From Verrucomicrobiota bacterium (GTDB taxonomy: Bacteria; Verrucomicrobiota; Verrucomicrobiia; Limisphaerales; CANJXF01), in NCBI GenBank assembly GCA_038214755.1, contig JBBQRQ010000009.1, forward strand, positions 9,587 through 73,586: DNA of 64,000 nt. The letters are read 5' to 3'. Below, in pieces: positions 13,267-63,128 of this stretch. Below the pieces are notes generated by a model. It saw only the letters and a list, made by a program, of their open reading frames with translations, searched no databases and had not been told where the DNA came from. A program made the translations under genes and the position numbers. Position 1 is the first letter of the stretch. The number at the start of each line of letters is the position of its first letter.

Positions 13267-13436
13267 CAATAAGTTCGCCGCGCAGGAGTTCGGAGCGGGG
13301 GGGTGTCGAACTGCAGCCGAGGTTGCTGGGTTGCGCGACGATCCAATCGCATCGTTGCGGTTTCAAAAAGAATTTATCTCCTATTGCATCGGGCGGATAA
13401 GGAAATAAACTCTTGTCTAATTTTTTGACTGTCCTT

Positions 13437-16127: not shown

Positions 16128-16173
16128 TTCCAAGCACGCACGACCACGAACGCGTTCTGCGCAAATAAATCCT

Positions 16174-27540: not shown

Positions 27541-27699
27541 ATTTAAACTGGCGGTCACAACCGTTGCCTGGAAAGCGGCGGAGGGCCGCCGCACTCCAAG
27601 ATGCTCGCGCGAATTTCAAGGTCAAGGGTGCATGAACGGCGCGAAGCGTCTTGGAGTGCGCCCGTCCTCTGGCGCTTTTGTTTGACCGCCAGTTTAAAT
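27541..27699. repeat. ~160-bp imperfect palindromic element between convergent genes
   Basis: Outer arms atttaaactggcggtca (27541-57) and tgaccgccagtttaaat (27683-99). Inner arms cgcactccaagatgctcgcgc (27590-610) and gcgcgaagcgtcttggagtgcg (27640-60). Both strands would read as ..SWSA..L.RF.. peptides. Confidence 0.75.
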
Positions 27700-48237: not shown

Positions 48238-48247
48238 GAACGGAGTC

Positions 48248-48340
48248 GGGTAGCATCTGCCTCCGGCGGGTGCGAAAAGAATTTTTATTTACGGAGATTC
48301 AAAGAAATTTCTTCGCACCCGCCGGAGGCAGATGCTACCC
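48248..48340. repeat. REP-like family A, inverted pair (gggtagcatctgcctccggcgggtgcgaa ... ttcgcacccgccggaggcagatgctaccc)
   Basis: Two perfect 29-nt inverted copies separated by a 35-nt AT-rich spacer. Located between ispA and the DUF2442 gene. Confidence 0.9.
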
Positions 48341-48370
48341 GGAATTGAATAGTTCCGCGACAGCGCATGG

Positions 48371-48673
48371 TTAGCGATTTGCATTGGCACGGCTCCAACG
48401 CCGGGCCGCAGCACGGAAAGCCCCCTCGTGCTCCGGCCAATCGTGAAGCGTGGCCGGGTCGAAGTCGGCCCCACAGGGCCAAACGACGGTGTGAATCTCC
48501 GGGTCGAGCGTGACCTGAGCGAAAGCCGCCGGGTCGCGGAGCGGGCCGTAAAGCTCGCCCTCAAGAATCGGCTCAAAATCAATGGTGCGCGCCAAACCAT
48601 CGTTGAAGCGCAGACGCAGTGAATACGGAGCGATGTGCTCGCAGGAGGTGATTCGGTAAATCGGATGGTTCAT
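48371..48673 (-). CDS. DUF2442 domain protein
   Basis: 100 aa, ..YSLRLRFNDGLARTIDFEPILEGELYGPLRDPAAF..V..D.. Typical partner of DUF4160. Confidence 0.75.
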   Translation of the reverse strand: MNHPIYRITSCEHIAPYSLRLRFNDGLARTIDFEPILEGELYGPLRDPAAFAQVTLDPEIHTVVWPCGADFDPATLHDWPEHEGAFRAAARRWSRANANR

Positions 48674-48682
48674 GGCGCTACT

Positions 48683-48952
48683 CTACATCAAAGGAGTGAT
48701 TGGGGAAGGCTTGCGGCCCTGTTCCAGAAGTGCCCAATCGGCCAGCAACTCTTCCTCGTGCAGCTCGGCCCACGCCTCGACGAGCCGCTGCTGGCGCTGC
48801 GCAATGACGCCGATGATGAGCGTGACCGGCGAAATGGAAAAGACGGCAACGTGCTCACCGTAGTAAGCGTGGAAATGCGGAACGTGGTGGCGCTCCGAAG
48901 GCTCGGAGAACATCCGAATGATGATACCATAAAAGCGTGAGAGTTCGGGCAT
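48683..48952 (-). CDS. DUF4160 domain protein
   Basis: MPELSRFYGIIIRMFSEPSERHHVPHFHAYYGEHVAVFSI is the hallmark N-terminus of DUF4160. Confidence 0.8.
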   Translation of the reverse strand: MPELSRFYGIIIRMFSEPSERHHVPHFHAYYGEHVAVFSISPVTLIIGVIAQRQQRLVEAWAELHEEELLADWALLEQGRKPSPITPLM

Positions 48953-49153
48953 GGCTTGCGATTCGGAGAGAGTTTATCGGCATCATTTCTTGGAGCAAGC
49001 GCGCAAACGCCTAACCTATGATTTTTTTCAATTAAATTCACCGCCCATGAAAGCGTGTCTCGTCGAAATCTTTCAAATCGCCCAGGCGGGTTCTGCGACA
49101 AAGGATTCGAGAACCTGAGAGTCTCTCTGCAACAGTCGAGGAAGACTTTATCC

Positions 49154-49447
49154 TCATTGGATTCGATGTTTCCAATAACCCGGCTCTCGACTACCGTGCG
49201 CTATGGCAACGATGAGAATAAAGTCTTCTTCGATCGTATAGAGAATGGCGTATGGGAAAAGGCGTGTGAGACGGCGACGCACATTTTGTTCGATCAAGCG
49301 CCAACGGTCAGGTGTCTCAAGAATTGTCTTGATCGCGGTTTCGACTTCTACGGTAAACGTTGCCCCAAGACCACGCCGGCGAGCCTCATAAAACGCGGCT
49401 GCTTCTCGGTACTCCAGGCGCGCCTCCGGGTGAAAGTCATATCTCAT
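49154..49447 (-). CDS. RelE/ParE-family type II toxin
   Basis: 97 aa. F.PEARLEYREAAAFYE...FPYAILYTIEEDFILIVAIAHGSREPGYW. 4-nt ATGA overlap with the upstream antitoxin. Confidence 0.8.
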   Translation of the reverse strand: MRYDFHPEARLEYREAAAFYEARRRGLGATFTVEVETAIKTILETPDRWRLIEQNVRRRLTRLFPYAILYTIEEDFILIVAIAHGSREPGYWKHRIQ

Positions 49448-49683
49448 CTTCCGACCAAACGGCGCACTTCAGCCAGCACCTGCTCTCCTGGTATCGGCTG
49501 GACGCGCCCGGATCGAACCTCGTCGCGGCGCCGAACTGCCTCTACGGCCCACAGTTTTTGTATCTCGTCCGTCTCTGCCTCATCCAAACTCTCGACCATC
49601 CGCTCTGCCAAAAGCGCCCGGGACGAAAAGGGAAGTTGCATCGCCTCTTCGGTAAGTTGGTCAACGGTCAATGACATGGGCAA
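49444..49683 (-). CDS. addiction-module antitoxin (Unstab_antitox-like)
   Basis: LTVDQLTEEAMQLPFSSRALLAERMVESLDE...WAVEAVRRRDEVRSGRVQPIPGEQVLAEVRR. Confidence 0.75.
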   Translation of the reverse strand: MPMSLTVDQLTEEAMQLPFSSRALLAERMVESLDEAETDEIQKLWAVEAVRRRDEVRSGRVQPIPGEQVLAEVRRLVGR

Positions 49684-49747
49684 AAGGTATTTGCTCGACG
49701 AAAAAACTCAAGCACGCGATGGCGCGGTCTCGTGAAACAAAATTCTC

Positions 49748-49776
49748 TTCGCACCCGCCGGCGGCAGATGCTACCC
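49748..49776. repeat. REP-like family A, single copy (inverted orientation)
   Basis: ttcgcacccgccggCggcagatgctaccc matches the 48312 copy at 28 of 29 positions. It covers the Uma2 stop codon. Confidence 0.85.
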
Positions 49777-50244
49777 AGCTCGGAAAAGCTCCGCGATTTC
49801 AATGCGCAAATCGGGAAGGAGTTTCTCGATCAGTGTTTCTTTGTTCGCCAGAATTTTTTGCAACGCCAGGCCGTAGGGACTGCCGTGATAAACTTCCACA
49901 TTGTCGTAGCGCGGATCGATCATCCAAAGGCGCGGCAGGCCGGTTTCTTCGTAAATCGATTTTTTCACCACGGTATCGAACCGATGATCGTCGGAATTGA
50001 TAATCTCCGCCGCGAGCCAGAGTCGATTGTTGGCGGTGGTGACGATGGCGAGATCGGGCCGCACCAAAGTGCCGGGCGAAAGTTGGATCACGGAACGCGG
50101 TGAGAGCAAACGTGAACTGGGAATTTCGGTCAAACATTTCGCGATTTGCGCGTGCAAGTGGGAGCAAATTTTTTCGTGGCGCAAACCGGGGGCGCTGCGC
50201 AAAAAAGTTTCGCCTTCGAGAATCTCCTGATACGGCTTAGACAT
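49771..50244 (-). CDS. Uma2-family (DUF820) putative PD-(D/E)xK endonuclease
   Basis: ..LVRPDLAIV...LWLAAEIINSDDHRFDTVVKKSIYEETGLPRLWMIDPRYDNVEVY matches the Uma2 D...E.S....D..K..Y pattern. The start overlaps the uvrA-paralogue stop by 8 nt (ATGTCTAA). Confidence 0.7.
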   Translation of the reverse strand: MSKPYQEILEGETFLRSAPGLRHEKICSHLHAQIAKCLTEIPSSRLLSPRSVIQLSPGTLVRPDLAIVTTANNRLWLAAEIINSDDHRFDTVVKKSIYEETGLPRLWMIDPRYDNVEVYHGSPYGLALQKILANKETLIEKLLPDLRIEIAELFRAG

Positions 50245-53131
50245 TTTTCAGCACTTTTCGCAAAAAACGTCCGGTATGCGATCGCCGGTTGGCCGCGATT
50301 TCTTCGGGCGTCCCTTGCGCCACAATCTCTCCGCCCGCCGTGCCGCCTTCCGGCCCGAGATCGATTACCCAATCGGCTTCCGCAATCAAATCCAGATTGT
50401 GTTCAATCACGATGACGGAATGGCCGGAATCGACGAGGCGCTGCAAAACCTCCACGAGCTTCCGCACGTCGGCCATGTGGAGACCAATCGTCGGTTCTTC
50501 GAGAATAAAAATGGATGAACCTGGCTTGCGCGTCTCTCTTGCTAATTCCAGTTCCGCTTGTTTTTTGGTTTGAATTTTCGCGTCGAGCTTTTGATTTCTA
50601 AAACCGGAGAGCAAATGCGTGACAAGTTTCATCCGCTGCGCCTCACCGCCGCTCAACGTCGGACTGGTTTGCCCGAGCTTGATGTAATCGAGTCCAGTAT
50701 CGCGCAACGCTTCCAGGGGGCGGCGAATTCGCGTTTGCGCCGCAAAAAAATCAATCGCTTCCGCCACGCTGAGATCGAGAATTTGCGCAATATTTTTCCC
50801 GGCAAACTCGACATCCAAAGTTTCTCGGTTGAAGCGACAGCCACCGCACGTTTCGCAACGCACAAACGCTGGCGGTAAAAAATTCATTTCCAGTTTGATC
50901 GTGCCCGCGCCCTCGCATTCGGGGCAGCGGCCTTGCGCGCTGTTGAAAGAAAATCGGCTCGCGGAATAGCCGCGCATCCGCGCTTCCGGCATTTGCGCGA
51001 ACAGTTGGCGGATGTCATCGAAGAAACCGACATAGGTCGCAGGAATCGAACGCGGTGTCCGCCCAATCGGCGCTTGATCCACTTCGTAAACGGATTGGAT
51101 GGATTCAAATCCGCGCAACTTCATGTTTTGCAAAGCAGGAGAATCCGCTGCGGAAGTTTTTTCGGCATTGTTTTTTTTTGATCTCACTTTGGCTTGAAGC
51201 ATCGGCAATAAACATTCGCGCACCAACGTGCTTTTGCCCGAGCCGCTCACGCCGGTGACGACGACAAATCGATTGAGCGGAAAACTCACGGAAAGATTTT
51301 TTAGATTGTGCACCGAAGCGTTTTGAAGCGTGAGCCAATAATTCGTAGCAGCCGAGGTGACGAGGCTCTGACTTTTTCCCCCACCAATTTTTTTTGAAGT
51401 GAGCCTCCTCACGTCGGCTCCTACAGAAACAGGCCGCCGTTTTCCCGAATGAGGGAAACATTTTTTCTCGCGCAAACAAGAGCCTGTGATCGAATCGCGA
51501 TGGCGCATCAATTCTTTCAACGTGCCCGTTGCCACAATTTCTCCGCCGTGAACTCCCGCGCCGGGACCGAGATCAATCACGTGATCGGCGTGACGCATCG
51601 TCTCTTCATCATGCTCGACCACGACAAGCGAATTGCCGCGCGATTTCAGAATCTCCAGCGCGGAAAGAAGTTGTTCGTTGTCGCGGGCGTGCAGACCAAT
51701 CGTCGGCTCGTCAAGAATGTAAAGCACCCCGCTAAGGTTTGAACCGAGTTGCGCCGCGAGGCGAATGCGTTGTGCTTCACCGCCGGACAAAGTCGTCGCG
51801 CCGCGCCCAAGTTGCAGATAACCCAAGCCGACTTCGCAAAGAAATTTCAGGCGCTCGCGAATCTCCGGCAAAATATCGCGGGCGATTTCCTTGTCGCGCC
51901 CTTTGAATTTCAACGTGCAAAAGAATTTTAGCGCGCTATCCACGGAAGCGTTACCGATGTCGATGATCGTAGGGGAGGCTTCCAGCCTGCCCTTTTTGGG
52001 GGCTGCGTGATTTGTGCTCATGGAAGGAATGGGCAGGCTGGAAGCCTGCCCTACGTTTAACCGCACCGTTCGCGCCACGGGATTCAACCTGGCCCCATTG
52101 CACTCAGGGCAAATCTCTCGTTTGCCTTCCTGCCATTCAAACCATGATTCCTCGATGGCGTCGGCGCGCGCGCCTCGCTCGACCTCCGGCAAATAAAAAA
52201 GTTCGCCGAAGCCGCGACACTTCGGACACCAGCCTTGCGAAGAATTGTAGCTAAAATTTTTCGGGTCCAGTTTCTCGAAGGATTGTCCGCACCCGGGACA
52301 AGCACGATGAATCGAGTGGATGGAAACTTTCTGATCGTTCGAGAGGGCGAACAAAGTCCCGTTTCCGAGACGCAATGCTTCGTCGATCAACTGTTGCGCA
52401 GTTTTGGAAAGGGGGGCAGAAGACTTGCCTATTTTTCGGAGGGGCAGGGGAGACGCCTGCCCTACTTTTTTATCGAGGATGCCGACGACGATTTCTACGT
52501 CGTGCTCGCGGAAACGATCCAACCGAAGGCGTTCGCTGGTGGAATAGATTTTTCCATCCGCGCGCACTTCGGCATAGCCATGTTTGGCCGCCCAGGCAGC
52601 AACATCGGTGTGAAAACCTTTTCGGTTTTTCACGACCGGGGCGAGCAGCAGCAAATCGCCGCGCCGCTTCATTTCCTCGCGGAGTTTTTTTCCAAGTTGA
52701 TCGCGGGTTTGCGCTTCGACCGGCAAATCGCAGTCGGGACAATATTGCGTTCCGAGCCGCGCGAAGAGCAGTCGAATGAAATGATAAATTTCCGTGACGG
52801 TCGCGACGGTGCTTTTTCCGCCGCCGCGCGAATTGCGTTGTTCGATGCTGACGGTCGGAGGAATGCCCGTGATCAAATCCACTTCCGGCCGCGAAAGTTG
52901 CTCGACGAATTGACGAACATAAACGTTCATCGAATCCAGGAAACGCCGTTGGCCTTCGGCAAATAAAATGTCGAAAGCCAATGTGCTTTTGCCCGAGCCG
53001 CTGACGCCAGTGATGACAACGAATTGATTTCGCGGAATCGAGACGGACAAATTTTTCAGATTGTGTTCGCGCGCGCCGTGAATGCGAATGGCGTTGTCGG
53101 AGGCCGCGAGAATTTTTCGTCCATTAATCAC
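50237..53131 (-). CDS. uvrA: UvrA-family ABC ATPase (excinuclease subunit A paralogue 1)
   Basis: HGAREHNLKNLSVSIPRNQFVVITGVSGSGKSTLAFDILFAEGQRR. Two Walker A motifs, two LSGGEAQR signatures, Zn-finger Cys pairs. DSMNVYVRQF replaces the canonical ESLSAYARQF. Confidence 0.9.
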   Translation of the reverse strand: MINGRKILAASDNAIRIHGAREHNLKNLSVSIPRNQFVVITGVSGSGKSTLAFDILFAEGQRRFLDSMNVYVRQFVEQLSRPEVDLITGIPPTVSIEQRNSRGGGKSTVATVTEIYHFIRLLFARLGTQYCPDCDLPVEAQTRDQLGKKLREEMKRRGDLLLLAPVVKNRKGFHTDVAAWAAKHGYAEVRADGKIYSTSERLRLDRFREHDVEIVVGILDKKVGQASPLPLRKIGKSSAPLSKTAQQLIDEALRLGNGTLFALSNDQKVSIHSIHRACPGCGQSFEKLDPKNFSYNSSQGWCPKCRGFGELFYLPEVERGARADAIEESWFEWQEGKREICPECNGARLNPVARTVRLNVGQASSLPIPSMSTNHAAPKKGRLEASPTIIDIGNASVDSALKFFCTLKFKGRDKEIARDILPEIRERLKFLCEVGLGYLQLGRGATTLSGGEAQRIRLAAQLGSNLSGVLYILDEPTIGLHARDNEQLLSALEILKSRGNSLVVVEHDEETMRHADHVIDLGPGAGVHGGEIVATGTLKELMRHRDSITGSCLREKKCFPHSGKRRPVSVGADVRRLTSKKIGGGKSQSLVTSAATNYWLTLQNASVHNLKNLSVSFPLNRFVVVTGVSGSGKSTLVRECLLPMLQAKVRSKKNNAEKTSAADSPALQNMKLRGFESIQSVYEVDQAPIGRTPRSIPATYVGFFDDIRQLFAQMPEARMRGYSASRFSFNSAQGRCPECEGAGTIKLEMNFLPPAFVRCETCGGCRFNRETLDVEFAGKNIAQILDLSVAEAIDFFAAQTRIRRPLEALRDTGLDYIKLGQTSPTLSGGEAQRMKLVTHLLSGFRNQKLDAKIQTKKQAELELARETRKPGSSIFILEEPTIGLHMADVRKLVEVLQRLVDSGHSVIVIEHNLDLIAEADWVIDLGPEGGTAGGEIVAQGTPEEIAANRRSHTGRFLRKVLKNV
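51345..51424. repeat. palindromic element translated in-frame within UvrA paralogue 1
   Basis: Arms gtagcagccgaggtgacgaggctc and gagcctcctcacgtcggctcctac. Read as ..VGADVRRLTSKKIGGGKSQSLVTSAATNY.. Confidence 0.8.
51969..52054. repeat. palindromic element (GGGCAGG-N7-CCTGCCCTAC units, inverted pair) in-frame within UvrA paralogue 1
   Basis: gtaggggaggcttccagcctgccc (51969-92) and gggcaggctggaagcctgccctac (52031-54). Read as ..GQASSLPIPSMSTNHAAPKKGRLEASPT.. Confidence 0.8.
52411..52465. repeat. two tandem hairpin units of the same family, in-frame within UvrA paralogue 1
   Basis: ggggggcagaagacttgcc followed by ggggcaggggagacgcctgccctac. Read as ..VGQASPLPLRKIGKSSAPLSK.. Confidence 0.65.
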
Positions 53132-53256
53132 CGGAAACTCTTAACATTCAAAAACGAATTCGCAAAATATCGCGCGAAAAAAAAAGCCGCTGAGAGCGAA
53201 CACTCCCAGCGGCCAGATGTTTGCTACGCCCGACTTGGGCGCGGCACCCAACGCAG

Positions 53257-53415
53257 TTATATTTTTCCCAACAAAACCAGAATCACGATGATGATCAGAA
53301 TGGCACCGATTCCTCCGGTCGGCCCGTAGCCCCACGAGGAACTATATCCCCAAGTGGGAATGACTCCGAGGAGAATGAGTATCAACAGAATGATTAGAAT
53401 TGTTCCCAGTGACAT
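53257..53415 (-). CDS. DUF3309-family small membrane protein (52 aa; below the ORF-track length cutoff)
   Basis: Hand translation gives MSLGTILIILLILILLGVIPTWGYSSSWGYGPTGGIGAILIIIVILVLLGKI*. ATG at 53415, TAA at 53257-59. This is the hallmark DUF3309 pattern. Confidence 0.7.
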   Translation of the reverse strand: MSLGTILIILLILILLGVIPTWGYSSSWGYGPTGGIGAILIIIVILVLLGKI

Positions 53416-53450
53416 AATTGTTCCTTTCGAAAAACCGAATGACGGACGAT

Positions 53451-53771
53451 TTATTTTACAACCAAATCGTTTTTAACGGACTTCACGCCATTGACACTGC
53501 GCGCGATTTCGGCGGCGCGATTTTTCTGAGACATTGTATCCACGAAGCCACTCAACTGGACGCGACCGTTGTAACTTTCCACTTTGACGGCGAGGCCTTT
53601 GACATCTGGGTCGCCCAGAAGGTCGGCTTTGACTTTGGCGGTGACAGATTTGTCATCGATATAGGCTCCCGTGCTCCGATGGGTGCGATCTCCCGCGCAG
53701 CCGCTGTTGAAAACGGCGATACCCAATCCCAAACAAACTACCAAACTGACGCTGGTTAATAATTTTTTCAT
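53451..53771 (-). CDS. BON-domain lipoprotein (OsmY-like)
   Basis: Signal plus lipobox-like ..VFNSGC. BON pattern YIDDKSVTAKVKADLLGDPDVKGLAVKVESYNGRVQLSGFVDTMSQKNRAAEIARSVNGVKSVKNDLVV. Confidence 0.8.
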   Translation of the reverse strand: MKKLLTSVSLVVCLGLGIAVFNSGCAGDRTHRSTGAYIDDKSVTAKVKADLLGDPDVKGLAVKVESYNGRVQLSGFVDTMSQKNRAAEIARSVNGVKSVKNDLVVK

Positions 53772-53950
53772 ATTTTTTTCTACTGCGGCTGCTCTTTTTT
53801 TCCTGAAAAAATTTTTGAAAATATTGGCGCGGCCTGCAATCAGGGCGCGCCTGTTTGGTTTCGACTAGAAAGTAACGGAGGTGAAGTGAGGGATTCCTCG
53901 ACCCGCGGGAGCATCGCAATTTCTTATAAAATGATCGAACGCCGATTAAA

Positions 53951-54021
53951 GGAACGCCGATCTCCAGATCGGCATTGGAACAAGCTATTTTTCCGCGAGC
54001 CGATCAGGAGATCGGCGTTCC
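53951..54021. repeat. 71-bp palindromic element 13 nt downstream of the UvrA-paralogue-2 stop (possible terminator)
   Basis: Arms ggaacgccgatctccagatcggc and gccgatcaggagatcggcgttcc, with one mismatch. Each arm is itself a small hairpin (gccgatc/gatcggc). Confidence 0.8.
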
Positions 54022-54033
54022 GTTGCCTTGCCG

Positions 54034-57000
54034 TTACTCGCCCATCGGCGCGAAGGCGCGCAGGGCGTGACCCGTATGACTTTCGGCGTGCGCGGCGATG
54101 GATTCCGGCGTGCCGACGGCCACGATTTTTCCTCCGTCAACGCCGGCTTCCGGTCCCAGATCGATGGCCCAGTCCGCCGATTTTATCACATCCAGATTAT
54201 GTTCGATGACGACGACGGAATGACCGGCATCGACGAGGCGTTGGAAAACTTTCAGCAGCACCCGCACGTCATGAAAGTGCAAACCGGTCGTCGGCTCGTC
54301 GAAGAGAAACAACGTCGGTTTTTTTTGTCCGCTTTCCGCAACGTTGGCTTCGGCCAAATGACTGACCAATTTCAGGCGTTGGCTTTCCCCGCCCGAGAGC
54401 GTGTTGATCGGCTGGCCGAGACGCAGATAACCCAAGCCCACTTCCTGAAGCAGCCGCAAACGTTCAACGCCGCGTTGGGCGTGGCGTGATTGGGAAAAGT
54501 CTTCCAAAAAGGCAATCGTTTCATCGACCGTCGCTTCCAACAGATCGGCGATGCTCCAGCCTGAAGTTGAGAGTTGAGAGGTGAGGGTTGAGCGGCGGAA
54601 TAACTTTGAACTTTGAACCTTAAACTTTGAACTCAACCTGATTTCCAAAATGTGCGGGCGATAACGGCGGCCATTGCATTCCGGGCAGCGAATAAAAATG
54701 TCACTGAGAAATTGCATTTCAATTTTTTCAAAGCCCGCGCCCCGACATTTTTCGCATTGGCCTTGTGCGGAATTAAAACTGAAGGCGCTCGCGTTCAGAC
54801 CGCGTTGGTTGGCCAAGTCCGTTTGCGCAAAGAGTTCGCGAATCTCGTCGAAGGCGCCGATGTAAACCGCCGGGTTGGAGCGTGGGGTTTTTCCCAGAGG
54901 CGATTGATCCACCAAAACGACGCGCCCCAAATTTTCCCACCCAGAGAGTTGGATTTTGGAATTCGGATTTGGGATTTCGGAATTTTCCTGGTCCTCCTCC
55001 GCCTGAATTTTGTCTCCGATCTGCTCTTTCTTGAAATTCGTCTCGAGAGCGGGCAACAAAACATCGCGAACCAACGTCGTTTTTCCAGAGCCGCTCACGC
55101 CGGTGATGCAGACAAAGCGGGTGAGCGGAATCTCGACAGAAATGTTTTTTAAATTGTGCGTCGATGCGTTGCGCAAAACCAGTGTGCTGCCGACATTCTG
55201 TCGGCAGTTCGCGAGTGGGGTTGATAAGTTTTCTGCCGACAGAATGGCGGCAGCACTTTGAACCTTGCGCCGTTGTGGGATTTTAATTTTCTTTTTCCCG
55301 CTTAGATATTTTCCCGTCAGCGAAGTTTTTGATTTTAGGATTTCACGAAATGTTCCTTGAAAAACCAGTTCGCCGCCCGCTGCGCCGTGACCGGGGCCGA
55401 GATCGACAATTTGATCAGCGGCGCGCATCACGCTGCTCTCGTGCTCCACAACGACGACGGTATTTCCCGAATCGCGAAGACGCTGAAGAATTTTTATGAG
55501 ACGCTCCGTGTCGCGCGCGTGCAAGCCGACGCTCGGTTCGTCGAGGACAAAAAGCGTGTTGACCAAACCGGAGCCTAGACACGTGGTGAGATTGACGCGC
55601 TCGGTCTCACCGCCGGAAAGTGTGCGCGTGGCGCGATCCAAAGTGAGATAGCCCAAGCCAACTTCATCGAGAAATCTGAGGCGCGATTGCACCTCGTTCA
55701 TCGCGAGAACGAGTGGGTCGGTCGATTGGAAATTTTTGCGATGCGATTGAAGCGCTTCCACAAATTGCAATGCGTCTCGAATCGAGAGTTGGTAGAAATC
55801 GGCGATGTGGATTTGGGATTTACGATTGACGAGTGACGCGTCGTTGGGAACTTCGCTCGTAAATCGTGAATCCGAAATCGTAAATCCCAAAGTGTTCGGT
55901 TGGAACCGTGTTCCGCCGCAATCCGCACAAGTTTTATATAAACGATAACGCGACAGCAAAACGCGGACATGCATTTTGTAAGCTTTGGATTCGAGCCAGC
56001 GGAAATAACCTTTGACGCCATACCACGCTCGAGGCCATTCGTGCGCGGAATCCTTTCCGTAACCGGGGTCGCCTTCGATGACCCAATCCTGAAATTGGCG
56101 CGGCAAATCTTTGAACGGAATATTCGTCGGAACTTTTCGCAGTTTGCAAAATTTCAGGAGGTCCTGCTGCGACTCCGCGCCTTGTCCGGTCTGCCACGGC
56201 CGCACCGCACCTTCGGCCAAAGTTTTCGCACGGTCTGGAATGGCGAGATCGTAATCAATCGCGATGGTGCGACCGAAGCCGCGACAAGTCGGGCACGCTC
56301 CGAGCGGATGGTTGAAACTAAAAAGGGCAGGAGAAGGCTCGCGGTACTCGATGTCGCAATGCGCGCAGTGAAAACGGTTGGAGAAGAAACGCGGAACGGG
56401 GAATGCGGAACGCGGAATGACATCAACTTCGCGAATCGACAGTTTTCCTTTTCCAAAATGGTAGGCTTGCTCGCAGGCTTCGACGAAGCGTTTGCGATTG
56501 GAGTCAATTAACTTCAAGCGATCCTGGACGACGGTGAGCGTGGTTGGTTTTAATTTCGACAACGCGTCGAGCGATTCATCAACGCGCAAAATTTCGTTGA
56601 CCACCAACAATCGCTGATAGCCTTGTTTGGAAATCAGCGCCAACGATTCTTCGAGTGAAATTTTTTCGGAAAGTGGAATGTCGAACGTAATGAGAATTTC
56701 ATCGTAGCCGCCAATTTCATCGTAGCCGCCGACGTGAGGAGGCGGATGGATCGAACGCGTATCAGACCGCCTCCTCACGTCGGCGGCTACGATATTTTCC
56801 CAAATCATTCGCGGCGAATCTTTGCGCACGAGTTGTCCGCAATTTTTGCAATGGAGTTGCGCCAGATGCGGCCAGAGCAATTTCGCGTAGTCGCAAATTT
56901 CCGTCATCGTGCCGACAGTGGAGCGCGTGGTCTTGACGGTGTTGCGTTGTTCGATGGCGATGGCGGGGGGGATTCCTTCGATGCTGTCCACTTGCGGCTT

Positions 57001-57246
57001 GTCCATGCGGTCGAGGAACTGGCGGGCGTAGGGCGAAAAAGTTTCGACGTAACGTCGCTGCCCTTCGGCAAAAAGTGTGTCGAACGCGAGGGAACTTTTT
57101 CCAGAGCCGCTCAAACCGGTGATGACAATCAATTTTCCGAGCGGCAGATCGAGGTCGAAATTTTTGAGATTGTTATGGCGCACACCGCGAAGGCGAATGA
57201 ATTTTGGCGCGGACTTTTTGAACATGGCGGCGGAATGTAAATCCAC
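54034..57246 (-). CDS. uvrA: UvrA-family ABC ATPase (paralogue 2, 1070 aa)
   Basis: RGVRHNNLKNFDLDLPLGKLIVITGLSGSGKSSLAFDTLFAEGQRRYVETFSPYARQFLDRMDKPQVDSIEGIPPAIAIEQRN. Two Walker A motifs, two LSGGE signatures, Zn-finger Cys pairs. Confidence 0.9.
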   Translation of the reverse strand: MDLHSAAMFKKSAPKFIRLRGVRHNNLKNFDLDLPLGKLIVITGLSGSGKSSLAFDTLFAEGQRRYVETFSPYARQFLDRMDKPQVDSIEGIPPAIAIEQRNTVKTTRSTVGTMTEICDYAKLLWPHLAQLHCKNCGQLVRKDSPRMIWENIVAADVRRRSDTRSIHPPPHVGGYDEIGGYDEILITFDIPLSEKISLEESLALISKQGYQRLLVVNEILRVDESLDALSKLKPTTLTVVQDRLKLIDSNRKRFVEACEQAYHFGKGKLSIREVDVIPRSAFPVPRFFSNRFHCAHCDIEYREPSPALFSFNHPLGACPTCRGFGRTIAIDYDLAIPDRAKTLAEGAVRPWQTGQGAESQQDLLKFCKLRKVPTNIPFKDLPRQFQDWVIEGDPGYGKDSAHEWPRAWYGVKGYFRWLESKAYKMHVRVLLSRYRLYKTCADCGGTRFQPNTLGFTISDSRFTSEVPNDASLVNRKSQIHIADFYQLSIRDALQFVEALQSHRKNFQSTDPLVLAMNEVQSRLRFLDEVGLGYLTLDRATRTLSGGETERVNLTTCLGSGLVNTLFVLDEPSVGLHARDTERLIKILQRLRDSGNTVVVVEHESSVMRAADQIVDLGPGHGAAGGELVFQGTFREILKSKTSLTGKYLSGKKKIKIPQRRKVQSAAAILSAENLSTPLANCRQNVGSTLVLRNASTHNLKNISVEIPLTRFVCITGVSGSGKTTLVRDVLLPALETNFKKEQIGDKIQAEEDQENSEIPNPNSKIQLSGWENLGRVVLVDQSPLGKTPRSNPAVYIGAFDEIRELFAQTDLANQRGLNASAFSFNSAQGQCEKCRGAGFEKIEMQFLSDIFIRCPECNGRRYRPHILEIRLSSKFKVQSSKLFRRSTLTSQLSTSGWSIADLLEATVDETIAFLEDFSQSRHAQRGVERLRLLQEVGLGYLRLGQPINTLSGGESQRLKLVSHLAEANVAESGQKKPTLFLFDEPTTGLHFHDVRVLLKVFQRLVDAGHSVVVIEHNLDVIKSADWAIDLGPEAGVDGGKIVAVGTPESIAAHAESHTGHALRAFAPMGE
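54562..54640. repeat. low-complexity short-repeat block (GTTGAG xN then CTTTGAAC xN) in-frame within UvrA paralogue 2
   Basis: tgaagttgagagttgagaggtgagggttgag...ctttgaactttgaaccttaaactttgaactcaac. Read as ..SSKFKVQSSKLFRRSTLTSQLSTS.. Confidence 0.55.
54949..54986. repeat. GGATTT(N)GG short direct-repeat tract in-frame within UvrA paralogue 2
   Basis: ttggattttggaattcggatttgggatttcggaatttt. Read as ..ENSEIPNPNSKIQ.. Confidence 0.5.
55184..55256. repeat. 73-bp palindromic element in-frame within UvrA paralogue 2
   Basis: Arms gtgctgccgacattctgtcggcag and ctgccgacagaatggcggcagcac, with one mismatch. Read as ..SAAAILSAENLSTPLANCRQNVGSTL.. Confidence 0.8.
55810..55892. repeat. ~80-bp palindromic element in-frame within UvrA paralogue 2
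   Basis: Termini gatttgggatttacgatt and aatcgtaaatcccaaag. Read as ..TISDSRFTSEVPNDASLVNRKSQ.. Confidence 0.7.
56695..56793. repeat. palindromic element plus an adjacent 18-bp tandem duplication, in-frame within UvrA paralogue 2
   Basis: Arms atcgtagccgccgacgtgaggaggcgg (56719-45) and ccgcctcctcacgtcggcggctacgat (56767-93). aatttcatcgtagccgcc occurs twice in tandem (56695-712, 56713-730). Read as ..AADVRRRSDTRSIHPPPHVGGYDEIGGYDEI.. Confidence 0.85.
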
Positions 57247-57287
57247 GCGCGAAGAAGTTCAAATGAACGCCGGGTTCAAATGAATGC

Positions 57288-57329
57288 GGGGTAGCATCTG
57301 CCTCCGGCGGGTGCGGCAGATGCTACCCC
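57288..57329. repeat. REP-like family A, compact hairpin form
   Basis: ggggtagcatctgcc-tccggcgggtgc-ggcagatgctacccc. Lies between the methyltransferase stop and the UvrA-paralogue-2 start. Confidence 0.9.
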
Positions 57330-57338
57330 TTCAGATTG

Positions 57339-58658
57339 CTACCCGCGAAATACGACGATCCGGTTTGTGTTCGTGCCTTTGGAATTGTTATCCACGCCCC
57401 AGCAATTCGCTGTCTTGGTAAATTTCTGGTCGTTGATCAAAATCAGTTCGGGATTCAAACCGGCTGCGATGCCGCAGGGCAAAATGGTTTCTTCCAGCTT
57501 TATTTTTCCGCCACGAATTTCGCCGACTTCAAACGCCACGTGACCGCCCGGTTTCAACACGCGGCGCAGTTCGCGAAAAACTTCCGTCATCGCAATTTGC
57601 CAATCTTCCAATTTGCGCGGCACGGTCAGCTTTACATTTTTCGCGTCGATACCGACAAACCAACAGCGCAGCCAGTTGTCGCCCGCATAATCGACCACAT
57701 CGAGAAATGGCGGCGAAGTGACGACGAGCGAAACGGATTGATCAGGAATTTGCGGAGTGCTGGAAGATGGCTCCGTGAGAAGCAATGCGCGCGAAAAATT
57801 TTTCTCCAAATTCTTCCGAGTCTTCGCGTCGCAATCGCTCAACAATATCCGGCTTTTTTTCAAAATGAGTTCCGCGACATTTCGCTGCGGTGGAATTTGA
57901 TTTCGATCCAGATTTATTTTTTTCTGCGATCGCAAAGACACCGCCTGATTGGGCGGCAAAGTGTAAACGGAAAAAAATCCCGGGGAATGTCCGGTCAAAC
58001 GATTGAGCGCGATCATGCGAATCCAATCGTCCACCGGATCAAGTTTTCCCTCGGCGACGCGCAGTAATAAATATTTTTTGAGCGAGAGAATTTGTTGAAG
58101 CGTTTCAGGATGATAAAACACGAGCAAATCTTCCGGCCATTCGTCGTGATCGGAAAAGTTGATTTCATTCAAGCGTTGAGCAATTTGCGCAAGAGTCGGA
58201 GGACACAGACGCGGCCTGGTTAAAAAAGCGCTCAGCGGATTCACGTCACAACCGAATGGAATTCGTCCCAACAAAGCGGCTTCGACCAAAGTGGTTCCTC
58301 GTCCCATAAACGGGTCGTAAACGATTTCGCCGGGCGCGGTGAGTCGCTCGATGAAGAAGCGGGGTAGTTGCGGTTTGAAACAAGCGCGGTAAGAAATTTC
58401 ATGCAGCCGGCTCGCGGCGCGTTGTTTGGAAGTCCAGAATTCGTTGACGCAAGTTTGGACGCAAACGGATTCTCCGGTGAACGTCATCGCCGAAGTGACG
58501 ATCCATTGCGTGGGTTCGCCAAATTGGCGGAAAGAATTTAGTTTGCGCGCCAACGCGTCTGACGAAAAGTTGCCGTCGGCAATTTTTTCCTCAGCTAAAT
58601 CCGAAAAGGAAAGTTGAGTCACGCGACTATTTAGCAAGGCGAAAAGAGCACGAGTCAA
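57339..58658 (-). CDS. SAM-dependent N6-adenine/N4-cytosine-type methyltransferase (DNA, possibly RNA), with no adjacent nuclease
   Basis: SAM-binding motif IVYDPFMGRGTTLVEAALLG (about aa 112-131) and catalytic-type motif VVTSPPFLDVVDY (about aa 313). Confidence 0.65.
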   Translation of the reverse strand: MTRALFALLNSRVTQLSFSDLAEEKIADGNFSSDALARKLNSFRQFGEPTQWIVTSAMTFTGESVCVQTCVNEFWTSKQRAASRLHEISYRACFKPQLPRFFIERLTAPGEIVYDPFMGRGTTLVEAALLGRIPFGCDVNPLSAFLTRPRLCPPTLAQIAQRLNEINFSDHDEWPEDLLVFYHPETLQQILSLKKYLLLRVAEGKLDPVDDWIRMIALNRLTGHSPGFFSVYTLPPNQAVSLRSQKKINLDRNQIPPQRNVAELILKKSRILLSDCDAKTRKNLEKNFSRALLLTEPSSSTPQIPDQSVSLVVTSPPFLDVVDYAGDNWLRCWFVGIDAKNVKLTVPRKLEDWQIAMTEVFRELRRVLKPGGHVAFEVGEIRGGKIKLEETILPCGIAAGLNPELILINDQKFTKTANCWGVDNNSKGTNTNRIVVFRG

Positions 58659-58790
58659 ACGTCAAGAATCAATTCGCCAAAAATAAAAAACGGAACTTGC
58701 CAAGCAAAAGTTCGATGAATAGGCTGCGCGCTCCTTTTGGAAAACCAAGAGCAAAAGCCGCGGGAAAATCAGCCGCAGATATTTAAATTT

Positions 58791-59057
58791 ATGTCCGTAA
58801 AAATTCGCATGAAACGCATCGGAACAAAAAACGTTCCGGTCTTCCGCATTGTCGTCGCCGATAGCCGCAGCCCGCGCGATGGAAAATTCATCGAGGAAAT
58901 CGGCACGTATCAACCTCTGAAAAAAGGCGACAACTTTACCGTCGATTTGGAACGCGCCAATTATTGGGTGAGCAAAGGCGCGCAACCGAGTGACACCGTC
59001 GCCAGCTTTTTGAAAAAAGCGGGTCGCGCCGCCGCGCCAGTCGTCCCAGCCGCTTAA
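58791..59057 (+). CDS. rpsP: 30S ribosomal protein S16
   Basis: MSVKIRMKRIGTKNVPVFRIVVADSRSPRDGKFIEEIGTYQP. ATG 58791 is preferred over the upstream track start. Confidence 0.92.
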   Translation: MSVKIRMKRIGTKNVPVFRIVVADSRSPRDGKFIEEIGTYQPLKKGDNFTVDLERANYWVSKGAQPSDTVASFLKKAGRAAAPVVPAA

Positions 59058-59068
59058 GATTTTTTGCC

Positions 59069-59311
59069 ATGCAAGCCTTCCTTGATTTTGTGGTCAAAGG
59101 GCTGGTCAATCATCCCGAAGCGGTGACCGTTACACCCGTTGAGAAAAATGGGTTGACGGTTTACGAATTGCGCTTGCATCAGGACGATATTGGCAAAGTG
59201 ATTGGAAAACAGGGGATGACGATCAACGCCATTCGGTCCCTCTTGCTCGCTGGCAGTGCAAAAAAAGGTTTGCGTTGCACGATAGAAATCGTCGAGGAGA
59301 GACCGGCGTAA
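59069..59311 (+). CDS. KH-domain RNA-binding protein (YlqC/UPF0109 family)
   Basis: ..VYELRLHQDDIGKVIGKQGMTINAIRSLL.. has the GxxG KH motif. It occupies the conserved position after rpsP. Confidence 0.85.
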   Translation: MQAFLDFVVKGLVNHPEAVTVTPVEKNGLTVYELRLHQDDIGKVIGKQGMTINAIRSLLLAGSAKKGLRCTIEIVEERPA

Positions 59312-59312
59312 A

Positions 59313-59341
59313 ATTTTGCAGCGGCGCGTCTATGACCGCCG
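59313..59341. repeat. REP-like family B, single copy (attttgcagcggcgcgtctatgaccgccg)
   Basis: Near-identical to 60031-60059 (28 of 29). Fills the KH-trmD spacer. Confidence 0.85.
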
Positions 59342-59365
59342 TTTCGCGGAGAAAGTTTTCCGGGC

Positions 59366-60031
59366 ATGAAAATCGACGTGCTCACTTTGTTTCCCGAAAT
59401 GTTCGTTGGGCCGCTGGATTTCAGCATGGTCAAGCGAGCGCGCGATGCGGGAATTTTGGATTTGCGGGTGATCAATCTGCGGGATTACACCCACGACCGT
59501 CATAAAACGGTGGACGATAAACCGTTTGGCGGCGGGCCAGGAATGCTCCTGAAACCGGAACCGATCTTTGCAGCGGTGGAAAATTTGGCGAATGAAAAAA
59601 CGCGCGTGATCATGCTGACGCCGGTGGGGCGAAAGTTTGATCAGCAAATCGCGCGCGAACTTTCGCAACAGGAACACTTGTTGTTTCTTTGCGGCGCGTA
59701 TGAAGGATTTGACGAACGTGTTCGGACGCTGGCGCAGGAAGAGATTTCCATCGGCGATTTCGTTCTGACCAATGGCGCGCTGCCGGCCATGTTGATCGTG
59801 GATGCGATCACGCGTTTGTTGCCCGGGGTTTTGGGTGACGAACAAAGTTCAGACGATGAATCGTTCAGTCGTGGGGAATTGGAGTATCCGCATTACACGC
59901 GGCCAGCGGAGTTTCGCGGGATGAAAGTTCCCGAAGTGTTGTTGTCCGGCAACCATGCGGAAATCGAGAAGTGGCGGCGCGAACAAGCAAAGTCGCGCAC
60001 AGAAGAACGCCGGCCAGATTTGTTGGAATAA
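59366..60031 (+). CDS. trmD: tRNA (guanine37-N1)-methyltransferase
   Basis: [18 protein letters not shown]...[39 protein letters not shown]. Confidence 0.92.
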
Positions 60032-60115
60032 TTTTGTAGCGGCGCGTCTATGACCGCCGCTGAAATCGAAAAAGAATTTAATCACCGGCGGTCACAGACG
60101 CGCCGCTACAGAAAA
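60031..60115. repeat. REP-like family B, inverted pair forming a long hairpin between trmD and rplS
   Basis: attttgtagcggcgcgtctatgaccgccg (60031-59) and cggcggtcacagacgcgccgctacagaaaa (60086-115). Ends 8 nt before the rplS ATG. Confidence 0.85.
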
Positions 60116-60122
60116 GAAATTT

Positions 60123-60590
60123 ATGAACCAGGCAATATTAGATAAAATCGAAACATCCCAGTATCGCAAAGATAACGCGAAGTACGCCGTCGGCGATTCC
60201 GTGCGCGTCCACACCAAAGTCGTCGAAGGCGATAAAGAGCGCGTCCAGATTTTTGCCGGCATCGTCATTGGCAAACGCGGACACGGCTTGAACGAAACTT
60301 TCACTGTTCGCCGCATCAGTTACGGCGAAGGTGTCGAACGCATTTTTCCAAAGCATTCGCCACGCGTCGAAAAAATTGAAGTGGAACGTCGAGGCGATGT
60401 CCGCCGCGCGAAGCTGACCTACCTTCGCAAACGCATCGGCAAAGGCGCCACGTTGGTGAAGGAAAGAGGAACGACTCTCGCTGAACGAGAAACGCAGGCT
60501 GCAGACAAGAAAGCTGCGAAAGCCAGGACAGCGGCGGATAAAGCAGCGACGGCTGAAAAGACCGAGGCCACACCAGTCGCTGCGGAGTGA
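60123..60590 (+). CDS. rplS: 50S ribosomal protein L19 with a ~40-aa Lys/Ala-rich C-terminal extension
   Basis: ..[64 protein letters not shown].. Confidence 0.92.
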
Positions 60591-60599
60591 ATTCGTTCC

Positions 60600-60623
60600 C
60601 CCGGTTTGCTCACCGGGTTTTTT
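60600..60623 (+). terminator. rho-independent terminator after rplS
   Basis: cccggt-ttgctc-accggg followed by tttttt. Confidence 0.55.
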
Positions 60624-60727
60624 GTTAAGGAAGGCGACGAGAGAACCGCCCTGATTTTTGATTTGCTAGTTGAGGGGCAGCCCTGTCCAATCGCTCTCGC
60701 AGTTCAACTCTTAACTACAAAAAAATT

Positions 60728-60973
60728 ATGAAAAAATTATTCCGTTATGTCGCAGTTATGGCCGTCGTTTCCACTCTGTCCCTTGCTCAATCCGCCTTCG
60801 CCGGTGAATGCTGCAAGAAAGCCGCCGGCCAGGCCAAAGCCGGCAAAGTCTGTGAGAAATGCGTCGGCGACCATCAATGTTGCAAAGATGCCATCGCGAA
60901 AGTGACGAAGGACGGCAAAGCCAAAGAATGCGCCAAATGCGCTGCCGCAAAAAAAGAAGACAAGAAATCTTAA
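60728..60973 (+). CDS. small secreted Cys/Lys-rich protein (81 aa)
   Basis: Signal peptide MKKLFRYVAVMAVVSTLSLAQSAFA. The mature 56 aa have 8 Cys arranged as CC-x12-CxxC-x5-CC-x15-CxxC. A strong terminator follows. Confidence 0.55.
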   Translation: MKKLFRYVAVMAVVSTLSLAQSAFAGECCKKAAGQAKAGKVCEKCVGDHQCCKDAIAKVTKDGKAKECAKCAAAKKEDKKS

Positions 60974-60993
60974 GCACTCATCCATCGCGACCA

Positions 60994-61025
60994 TCCCATC
61001 CGGCCTGCTGCCGGATGGGATTTTT
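60994..61025 (+). terminator. rho-independent terminator
   Basis: tcccatccggc-ctgct-gccggatggga (11-bp perfect stem) followed by ttttt. Confidence 0.7.
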
Positions 61026-61073
61026 ATTTCACGTGGATTGCGTCCGGGCGAAGGAAACGGCTCGCGCTGGAAT

Positions 61074-62048
61074 CTAACTCCGCACTTGGTTACTGACTTG
61101 AGCAGTCAACGTCGCGTATGCCGCATTAATAATTTTGGATCGTTGCTCGGCCATTTGCTGCCAGTCTTTGTTCAACGTGGCGAACTTGTCGGGGTGGCAC
61201 TGTTTTATTTGCCGGCGATAGGCCGCTTTGATTTGGGCAAGTGAGGCCGAACGCGGAACTCCCAAAATCTTGTGCGGCCCCGTCGGCTCTTCTTCGGCAC
61301 GAGCAGCCGGAGGCGATTTGGACGAGCGAAAAGTCGGGTCGGGTTGAATTTTCACGCGCACCCCCAGCACGCGCCCGAGTTCAGCGCGCAGATCGCTCGT
61401 GAGAGAAATTCCGCTCGGCTCGCTCTGCAAAAAAATTACTCCGGCTATGTCGCGCAATTGCGGAAAAACTTTGACCGAATTTAATTCCGGCACGAGTCGG
61501 GCCAACTCCGTGAAGGAGACGCGCGAACCTTTTTCCAACAGAATGACTAAAATCTTCGCGCAACTTGCGATGTCCATGCGCAGCAGCGTGGCCGATTTGT
61601 AGAACATGGAAATGGCGGAGACGAACCATTGCGGCCCGACGTAAAGCATCTGCCGGAAAAATCCATCGTCCACGCCGGGACCGGACAAAAGAATGTTCAA
61701 TGCGCGAGCCAGACCCGCGTCGGACACGTGGACTTTTGCGGTTTTGTATTTGGCGTAGCGGAGGTGCTCGACGTTTCGCCGGTAGTGACTAATAAAAAGC
61801 CACACCAGAAACGCCGCGGAGAAGGTCGCGCAAAAGGGAATCGAGTTGCGAAGGTTGAGGTCAAAAGTAGTTTTCGCCAGCGTCGCGATGATCTCGAAAA
61901 GAATGAGTCCCACGACGAACGCGACACCAGTCGTGAAGGCGAGCACGACCAAGCTCGCCGCCAAACAAATCGCGCCCACCGGAATATTCAGGAGCGCTTC
62001 CGTCAGCGTTTGTTTGACCAACCATCTTTCGACGAGGGCGATTCTCAT
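61074..62048 (-). CDS. membrane protein with a C-terminal J domain (DnaJ-like)
   Basis: PHKILGVPRSASLAQIKAAYRRQIKQCHPDKF contains the HPD motif. N-terminal TM helices. Start moved to MRIALVERW (62048) because the track's first 14 aa are encoded by a REP-A copy. Confidence 0.7.
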   Translation of the reverse strand: MRIALVERWLVKQTLTEALLNIPVGAICLAASLVVLAFTTGVAFVVGLILFEIIATLAKTTFDLNLRNSIPFCATFSAAFLVWLFISHYRRNVEHLRYAKYKTAKVHVSDAGLARALNILLSGPGVDDGFFRQMLYVGPQWFVSAISMFYKSATLLRMDIASCAKILVILLEKGSRVSFTELARLVPELNSVKVFPQLRDIAGVIFLQSEPSGISLTSDLRAELGRVLGVRVKIQPDPTFRSSKSPPAARAEEEPTGPHKILGVPRSASLAQIKAAYRRQIKQCHPDKFATLNKDWQQMAEQRSKIINAAYATLTAQVSNQVRS

Positions 62049-62050
62049 TC

Positions 62051-62079
62051 GGGTAGCATCTGCCTCCGGCGGGTGCGAA
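62051..62079. repeat. REP-like family A, single copy
   Basis: gggtagcatctgcctccggcgggtgcgaa is identical to 48248-48276. Confidence 0.9.
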
Positions 62080-62102
62080 ATCATTCCCAAATCTGATCGC
62101 GC

Positions 62103-62987: not shown

Positions 62988-63128
62988 GGCGCGTGCAGCA
63001 TTGTCGAAAAAGCCAGACGCTGCAACGAGGAAGCCAAGAGGATTTTTATAAAAAAACACCTGCAAAAAAATTCGAGGCGGACAAACCTAAGCTGTCCGCC
63101 TCGTTGGCGATTACTTCAGACTAGACGC

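Follow-up and report, generated by a model that had tools for sequence, protein, structure and literature searches.

A family of short palindromic repeats, here called family A, occupies gene-end spacers in a 64,000-nucleotide stretch of a Verrucomicrobiota genome (assembly GCA_038214755.1, contig JBBQRQ010000009.1, positions 9,587 to 73,586; hereafter the window). Its 29-nt unit, GGGTAGCATCTGCCTCCGGCGGGTGCGAA, very probably belongs to a family of GTAG-tagged repetitive extragenic palindromic (REP) sequences of uncultured Verrucomicrobiota, non-autonomous and most likely spread in trans by an enzyme of the RAYT type. RAYTs are REP-associated tyrosine transposases, that is, HUH/Y1 enzymes of the IS200/IS605 superfamily. 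This reading draws on the anatomy of the unit, its strand-asymmetric folding, its dispersal, its extragenic position, the heads-out pairing of its copies and their presence or absence at orthologous sites. The initial annotation of the window had described a family resembling REPs and bacterial interspersed mosaic elements (BIMEs), and the GTAG head, the imperfect palindrome and the inverted doublets support that description. As judged from its sequence, which has no match in the supplements of Di Nocera, De Gregorio & Rocco 2013 (BMC Genomics 14:522, PMC3733652), family A would be a previously undescribed family of the known GTAG REP super-family. The intragenic REPs of Opitutus terrae in that source encode other peptides.

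Anatomy and folding of the family A unit

A scan of the window with the 29-mer found five copies with zero to two mismatches, at four loci between 48.2 and 62.1 kb, and 100 dinucleotide-preserving shuffles, used to set the chance level, gave no match (expected number, 0). These are the five copies of the initial annotation: three are exact, the copy at 49748-49776 has one mismatch and copy d has two (Table 1). They are found in mixed orientation, separated by 64 nt to 7.5 kb. A covariance model that was derived from 50 distinct family A copies and run with filters off scores them at 45-50 bits (E = 1e-9 to 6e-11). No further copy at up to eight mismatches was detected by the Hamming scan in the rest of the window. 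The first 48 kb, where the initial annotation had noticed no copy, gave no match to the covariance model better than E=0.6.

The unit is laid out as GG-GTAG / CATCTGCC-TCC-GGCGGGTG / C-GAA. The two arms of the palindrome, GCAYCTGCC and GGCGGGTGC, enclose a pyrimidine loop and are followed by a short tail of the GCGAA type. Nine base pairs, from G6-C26 to C14-G18 and including two G·T wobbles, form the stem around a 3-nt loop. The GG-GTA head is unpaired, the last G of GTAG opens the stem, and both the GTAG head and the palindrome are present in all five window copies. The minimum-free-energy structure of the strand carrying GTAG is exactly this 9-bp stem hairpin, with folding energies of -5.9 kcal/mol (DNA) and -14.6 kcal/mol (RNA); a unit with C at position 9, which is the commoner variant, reaches -9.3 kcal/mol as DNA. 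The complementary strand (-2.4 kcal/mol as DNA, -6.5 as RNA) folds no better than shuffled sequences. Only the GTAG strand thus forms the hairpin, because two of its pairs are G·T wobbles.

Conservation was computed on the 50 distinct copies, drawn from 60 sequences. Positions 2-8 and the stem are at least 90% conserved, and the variable positions are 16 and 17 in the loop (TCC, TCT, TTC), 27-29 in the tail, and position 9, where T or C is found and either pairs with G23. GTAG is retained at G3 in 49 copies, T4 in 49, A5 in 47 and G6 in 48, counts subject to the caveat that at least one arm per locus was picked by a pattern containing GTAG; the unselected partner arms keep GTAG too. Stem cells are paired in 97.6% of cases, compared with 33-46% when the partner is slid.

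Larger structures are built from these units in the window. Copies b and c form the perfect inverted pair seen in the initial annotation, and their complementarity reaches further, to arms of 40 nt (48247-48286 / 48302-48341). This doublet folds as one long hairpin on either strand (-46.6 kcal/mol as DNA, z -13.4; -72 kcal/mol as RNA). Copies a and c are 86% identical over 51 nt, comprising the 29-mer and about 20 nt flanking its tail (48243-48293 / 49731-49781), so a unit somewhat longer than 29 nt was copied at least once. Copy d runs straight into its own 5' 15-mer in inverted form; the compact hairpin that results (57288-57329), likewise recognized at the outset, has a perfect 15+15-nt stem and a 12-nt loop, and lies between the stop codon of the methyltransferase gene and the promoter region of the UvrA-like gene. 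The covariance model scores this element at 48 bits on the plus strand and 20.9 bits on the minus strand.

Dispersal, pairing and orthologous sites

A local duplication is excluded, since family A is present in many other genomes. An exact search with the 24-nt core among genomes taken one per species found it on at least six contigs from at least three Verrucomicrobiota metagenome-assembled genomes (MAGs), and a fourth MAG, reached via synteny (L061), carries two doublets. The family is therefore dispersed over at least four MAGs, to which a metagenome collection adds 53 contigs from about a dozen datasets; some of these contigs represent one locus sampled twice, and independent loci number about 45. 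Viral contigs gave no match to the core. The total stands at 103 copies at up to eight mismatches in 408 kb, compared with about 0.4 per shuffle.

All 36 doublets (pairs less than 400 nt apart) have their GTAG heads directed outward, and their total length ranges from 66 to 236 nt. Another 26 copies stand alone despite contig room for a partner, and four more are at contig ends. The spacers within doublets, 8-178 nt long, cannot be aligned across loci, and even the two doublets of a single contig have unrelated spacers (14 and 34 nt in L061; 79 and 51 nt in L006). Among spacers of at least 25 nt, 11 of 27 fold strongly (z < -2), as against 8 of 52 control segments, and many of the strongly folding ones hold another palindromic repeat. 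The doublet spacers of L002, L020, L034, L036, L038 and L048 contain a repeat of TCGAACATCGAAC-like units that form their own long hairpin, with z down to -11; here two unrelated palindromic elements are thus nested. A search of Rfam at gathering score gave no match in the window and, in 15 loci with long spacers, only an unrelated Acido-Lenti-1 RNA on L056; the doublet spacers themselves contain no Rfam family. The search for tRNA and tmRNA genes found none.

Family A is strictly extragenic in the window and lies in spacers at nearly all related loci. Fourteen apparent cases of a copy inside an open reading frame (ORF) are mostly short spurious ORFs or N-terminal extensions. The claim that copies always separate co-directional genes is true of the window and fails elsewhere: according to a crude longest-ORF caller, of 38 loci that could be classified, 16 have convergent neighbours, 14 tandem and eight divergent ones, against a background of 71, 172 and 70 for all spacers.

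Comparison with relatives lacking individual copies, proposed in the initial annotation together with a possible non-autonomous mobile element, revealed empty sites that show insertion. The UvrA-like protein shares 66-81% identity with its best orthologues, whose contigs are syntenic with the window. The spacer between the mutarotase (aldose epimerase) and J-protein genes, which measures 54 nt and holds copy e in the window, is 24 nt long in L061, 3 nt in L066 and 5 nt in a JGI (Joint Genome Institute) contig, without a repeat in any of them. In L061 the sequence TTTCGC, identical to the REP tail, is already present beside the ATG, which suggests, from this one junction, that insertion may have occurred next to a pre-existing TTTCGC. 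L060 and L063/L064, representing two lineages, have Uma2 next to ispA, with 46-72 nt and no REP between them; in the window, 1.5 kb comprising copy a, two toxin-antitoxin pairs and doublet b/c intervene.

Two further spacers show replacement. Between the methyltransferase and UvrA genes, L063 carries a diverged family A doublet (9863-9892; 18.9 bits; 1-nt indel), and the methyltransferase stop codon comes from its head, at the same place as a relic head in the window. L060 has there a heads-out doublet of another GTAG family, which also gives the stop, and L061 has none. At the ABC2|AP-endonuclease spacer, L061 has a doublet of family A, and the palindromic doublet of L066 is a different one. 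Gene-end spacers thus show gain, loss and replacement, which is how mobile repeats behave, and not fixed regulatory sites. Clean pairs of filled and empty orthologous sites such as these are seldom available for REPs and can help to establish how the elements insert.

Proposed spread of the units and alternative explanations

The hairpin of the GTAG strand presents the single-stranded DNA geometry recognized by RAYTs. Because of this strand-specific geometry, spreading of non-autonomous elements in trans by a RAYT-type enzyme is the most likely mechanism; we infer the involvement of a RAYT purely from anatomy. The enzyme would be encoded elsewhere in the genome and would spread the units now or would have done so formerly, and they would land in short intergenic spacers by gene ends, mostly as head-to-head pairs. 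Effects on flanking genes, through RNA hairpins or an occluded ribosome-binding region of the J-protein gene, would presumably be secondary and copy-specific. Nunvar et al. and Bertels & Rainey reportedly also link GTAG REPs to RAYTs. The same link is made by Di Nocera et al. (PMC3733652).

Several observations weigh against this interpretation. No RAYT or Y1 transposase was detected among the window ORFs of suitable size (Pfam on 20 ORFs). Neither was a RAYT, the IS200-like enzyme that the initial annotation had recommended looking for, found in six-frame translations of 521 kb of window and related loci by phmmer, with E. coli TnpA-REP (identical in sequence to PDB 4ER8) as the probe, and by a motif search; no hit fell below E=0.6. 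The stem shows no compensatory covariation, with zero double-sided changes and a shuffle control that was not exceeded. The stems are almost invariant and therefore offer no covariation support, so that the hairpin rests on conserved complementarity. Family A counts describe the window and related loci and not the copy number per genome. As for the doublets, their unrelated spacers do not fit a REPIN (an inverted REP pair forming a hairpin) copied as a whole, and independent single insertions would leave the 100% heads-out geometry unexplained. The invariable heads-out pairing with unrelated spacers is the sole puzzling point, and it concerns how REP dimers arise.

A different, and unlikely, explanation is that the copies are host RNA elements at gene 3' ends, kept by selection and not mobile, which would end transcription or shield mRNA against 3' exonucleases. 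Such a role would agree with the G·U wobbles that make the hairpin strand-specific, with its greater stability as RNA (-14.6 kcal/mol), with the RNA hairpin of -72 kcal/mol formed by the doublet, and with the position of the copies, a few to tens of nucleotides from stop codons; Di Nocera et al. maintain that RNA is the form in which many GTAG REPs act (PMC3733652). However, relative to the transcribed strand the copies face either way. Copy e runs antisense to the genes of the minus strand, and the mRNA consequently carries only its poorly folding complement (-11.2 kcal/mol, z -0.27); copy d is also antisense, yet the mRNA strand of its 15-bp hairpin folds well (z -5.9). Eight of the 38 classifiable loci lie between divergent genes, as far as the crude ORF caller can tell, and orthologous spacers are empty or hold an unrelated family, which argues against a conserved function tied to the site. 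The terminator role envisaged in the initial annotation finds no support: no copy is followed by a T-run, while T-tailed terminators are seen at 53214-53185, 63103-63073, 60993-61021 and 60600-60617, and these four sites in 46-64 kb, with stems of 6-13 pairs, lie away from the family A copies. Canonical Rho-independent terminators were rejected on the same ground, as the 41 terminator-like sites of the 46-64 kb region include none of the five copies and no copy has a T-tract.

The heads-out pairs could be taken for miniature inverted-repeat transposable elements (MITEs), deletion derivatives of a DDE-type insertion sequence (IS) with 29-bp terminal inverted repeats. All 36 pairs are indeed inverted and ends-out, as terminal inverted repeats are, and the 51-nt arms at 48243-48293 and 49731-49781 enclose a gene block of 1.4 kb. 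This origin is nevertheless very improbable given that there are no consistent target-site duplications at pair boundaries or in filled versus empty sites, that the internal sequences are unrelated and vary from 8 to 178 nt, that 26 copies are single where the contig has room for a partner, and that the 521 kb contain no transposase gene inside or next to any pair. Moreover, each arm is itself a GTAG-headed hairpin, a hallmark of REPs and not a feature of IS terminal repeats. It is equally improbable that the repeats are bound by a protein of the host, such as a nucleoid-associated, gyrase- or IHF-type factor, or serve as an operator, and were multiplied because this protein requires many sites. 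E. coli REP/BIME elements bind gyrase, Pol I and IHF, and the 24-nt core of family A is nearly invariant in divergent genomes while housekeeping proteins are 66-81% identical; both points favour protein sites. Presence, absence and family replacement at orthologous spacers, in contrast, oppose site-specific regulation, strand-asymmetric G·T pairing is irrelevant to the binding of double-stranded DNA, and no candidate protein emerges from the analysis.

The block between copy a and doublet b/c raises the question of cargo. Its DUF2442 protein matches homologues at up to 93% identity, whereas the housekeeping proteins of the window reach only 76-81%; being far closer than the housekeeping orthologues, these homologues suggest that the block is a mobile or recently acquired cassette. 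The 29-mers might then be ends that bracket arbitrary DNA and move or capture it, the doublets and the 1.5-kb unit (48248-49776) forming one continuum, a proposal that we consider very unlikely. If it were true, RAYT-type machinery could mobilize genes, or REPs would insert symmetrically at the feet of pre-existing palindromes or cassettes. DUF2442 homologues of 88-93% identity were found in nine loci of other assemblies, in about four genomic contexts, and none has family A flanks; mobility of the cassette is therefore not generally tied to family A, and a composite transposon of the form REP-cargo-REP is unsupported. Two other candidates were set aside. In a CRISPR array one expects regular direct repeats, whereas the copies point in either direction at distances of 64 nt to 7.5 kb. 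Integron attC sites, which are bounded by R''/R' core sites (RYYYAAC ... GTTRRRY), were rejected as the ends read GGGTAGC...GCTACCC, with no GTTRRRY, and copies also flank the housekeeping genes ispA, uvrA and mutarotase; no integrase was found among the window ORFs scanned by Pfam.

Gene context, other repeats and known systems

Along the minus strand, genes and repeats succeed one another in the order aldose epimerase, copy e, DnaJ-domain protein (J-protein), N6_N4 methyltransferase, copy d, UvrA-like gene, BON-domain gene, second UvrA-like gene, Uma2, copy a, antitoxin/ParE, DUF4160/DUF2442, doublet b/c and polyprenyl synthase. Pfam confirmed every flanking gene identity named in the initial annotation.

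Table 1. Family A copies, neighbouring genes and other repeats, in window coordinates
Feature	Position	Strand	Remarks
REP copy c	48248..48276	+	Left arm of doublet; 0 mismatches; 49.9 bits
REP copy b	48312..48340	-	Right arm of doublet; 0 mismatches
REP doublet b/c	48248..48340		GTAG heads outward (head-to-head); 93 nt; spacer 35 nt
REP copy a	49748..49776	-	Single; 1 mismatch; loop GCC rather than TCC
REP copy d	57289..57317	+	2 mismatches, both at 3' end
Relic REP head GGGTAGCAA	57336..57344	-	6 nt from copy d
REP copy e	62051..62079	+	Single; 0 mismatches
REP-bracketed 1.4-kb block	48341..49747	-	Between copy a and doublet b/c
DUF4160/DUF2442 pair	48371-48952	-	Pfam
DUF2442 gene	48371-48673	-	Pfam
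Unstab_antitox/ParE pair	49154-49683	-	Pfam
Antitoxin	49444-49683	-	Pfam
Polyprenyl synthase (ispA-like)	47305 to GTG start 48201	-	Pfam; start set by L060 orthologue
Uma2	49771-50244	-	Pfam
UvrA-like gene	54034 to ATG start 57225	-	Pfam; start from orthologue comparison
N6_N4 methyltransferase	57339-58658	-	Pfam
DnaJ-domain protein (J-protein)	61074 to ATG start 62048	-	Pfam; start from homologue N-termini
Aldose epimerase (mutarotase)	62103-63065	-	Pfam
In-frame doublet, other family	51969-52054	-	Inside ORF 50237-53131
In-frame doublets, other families	56719-56793, 55812-55891, 55184-55256	-	Inside ORF 54034-57246
GTAGCGGCGCGTCTATGACCGCCGC family	60036-60109 and 59318-59342		

Copy c sits 46 nt upstream of the GTG start of the ispA-like gene, copy b 30 nt downstream of the DUF2442 stop codon (48371-48373), and copy e 23 nt downstream of the aldose-epimerase stop (62103-62105) and only 2 nt upstream of the J-protein ATG. 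Read on the minus strand, the loop of copy e becomes GGAGG, 14 nt upstream of that ATG; the inserted REP thus brings a Shine-Dalgarno-like sequence to a place where the spacer of relatives is only 3-24 nt long.

Family A matters for annotation, one point being the placement of copy e so close to a start codon. It makes false ORFs and false N-terminal extensions, as the initial annotation had cautioned: the stretch ..GSICLRRVR.. lies in ORF 48289-48600 and ..PPEADATR.. in an N-terminal extension of ORF 61074-62090, the latter, that of the J-protein, being refuted by the N-termini of homologues. Since the true starts are fixed by orthologues, the ORF extensions through the repeats are artefacts. 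It also gives real stop codons. The stop of Uma2 is the TAG in the head of copy a (49771-49773) and that of the methyltransferase is the TAG (57339-57341) of the relic head. Elsewhere the head TAG ends at least eight distinct genes (12 further loci, some of which are one site sampled twice). Use of the head TAG as a stop is not enriched: an ORF of at least 80 codons terminates at 13 of the 92 heads, compared with 11.4% of all TAGs.

The window also carries repeats of other families. Both UvrA-like genes contain in-frame palindromic doublets, for example GTAGGGCAGGCTTCCAGCCTGCCC, which encodes VGQASSLP, and alignment with five orthologues identifies the UvrA segments at about aa 155-180 and 663-690 as lineage-specific insertions. 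Opitutus terrae likewise has in-frame REPs in its two uvrA genes (Di Nocera et al. 2013, PMC3733652). The UvrA-like pair itself (50237-57246; 964 and 1070 aa, with the BON-domain gene between) has as its counterpart, in many other Verrucomicrobiota, one protein of about 1,810-1,870 aa, and is split or fused by lineage. A third GTAG-headed family, GTAGCGGCGCGTCTATGACCGCCGC, is represented by a heads-out doublet between trmD and rplS and by a single copy with a GCAG head between a KH-domain gene and trmD; the number of matches expected by chance is zero. Further intergenic palindromic clusters lie at 2177-2505, 27572-27678 and 53948-54024, an example being CCCTCTCCTCGGAGGAGAGGG with a GGGGTGAGG tail at 2.2-2.5 kb. 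The genome appears to be rich in several families of hairpin repeats.

Two other features were noted. Just upstream of the UvrA-like gene, 3 nt from copy d, the palindromic motif GTTCAAATGAA(C/T) occurs twice (57257-57268 and 57274-57285), and CATTTGAAC is kept at the same place in L060 and L061. We take CATTTGAAC to resemble a LexA box of the GTTC-N4-GAAC type; Erill et al. in 2016 are said to have reported this type for Verrucomicrobia. At 13413-18909, large ORFs consist of at least 22 copies of a 150-nt (50-aa) unit, ..FYGTT..GG..GTVFK.T.NG.LT.LV.F, which is presumably a GloVer-type repeat of Verrucomicrobia and Gloeobacter proteins.

Among known systems, Rickettsia palindromic elements (RPEs) and intragenic REPs resemble the other families of the window that lie in frame inside the two UvrA-like genes; they differ from family A, which is extragenic in the window and at nearly all related loci. 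E. coli REP/BIME elements with TnpA-REP (PDB 4ER8) share with family A the GTAG head, the imperfect palindrome and the intergenic position at gene 3' ends, and the strand-specific hairpin recognition by TnpA-REP has, by anatomy, a counterpart in the strand-specific folding of family A. In contrast, there is no sequence similarity between the two and no mosaic of alternating REP types with defined linkers in family A. The REPINs of Bertels & Rainey 2011 are inverted REP pairs that form a long hairpin, as does the window doublet at 48248-48340, and family A is like them in that its singlets are plausibly decayed doublets and that it persists vertically across related genomes. REPINs, however, are copied whole with a conserved spacer. 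The spacer of family A is not conserved, and family A is consequently not a classical REPIN; nor was a cognate RAYT found in the 521 kb.

The closest likeness is to the 24 GTAG-tagged REP families of Di Nocera et al. 2013 (PMC3733652). The super-family is present in the PVC (Planctomycetes-Verrucomicrobia-Chlamydiae) superphylum, and GTAG-17 to -20 belong to Opitutus terrae, a member of the Verrucomicrobia described there as 'highly enriched'. In these REPs the GTAG tag is unpaired, the stem has 6-13 bp, G·T pairs among them, and the loop 2-3 nt; their commonest dimers are head-to-head, they are found near gene 3' ends, their TAG serves as a stop codon, and several families share a genome (PMC3733652). 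Family A differs in its spacers: the head-to-head dimers of the super-family tend to have conserved spacers, whereas those of family A are unrelated even within one contig. Points on which the two agree are the terminal GTAG, the stem with G·T pairs (9 bp in family A), the short loop, the predominance of head-to-head dimers (with spacers of 20-100 nt in the super-family), the extragenic location, by gene ends, of the copies examined, the use of TAG as a stop codon, the co-residence of several families and, in this window, the presence of other families in frame inside uvrA genes. With family A, the known range of GTAG-type REPs would come to include uncultured Verrucomicrobiota of soil and freshwater.

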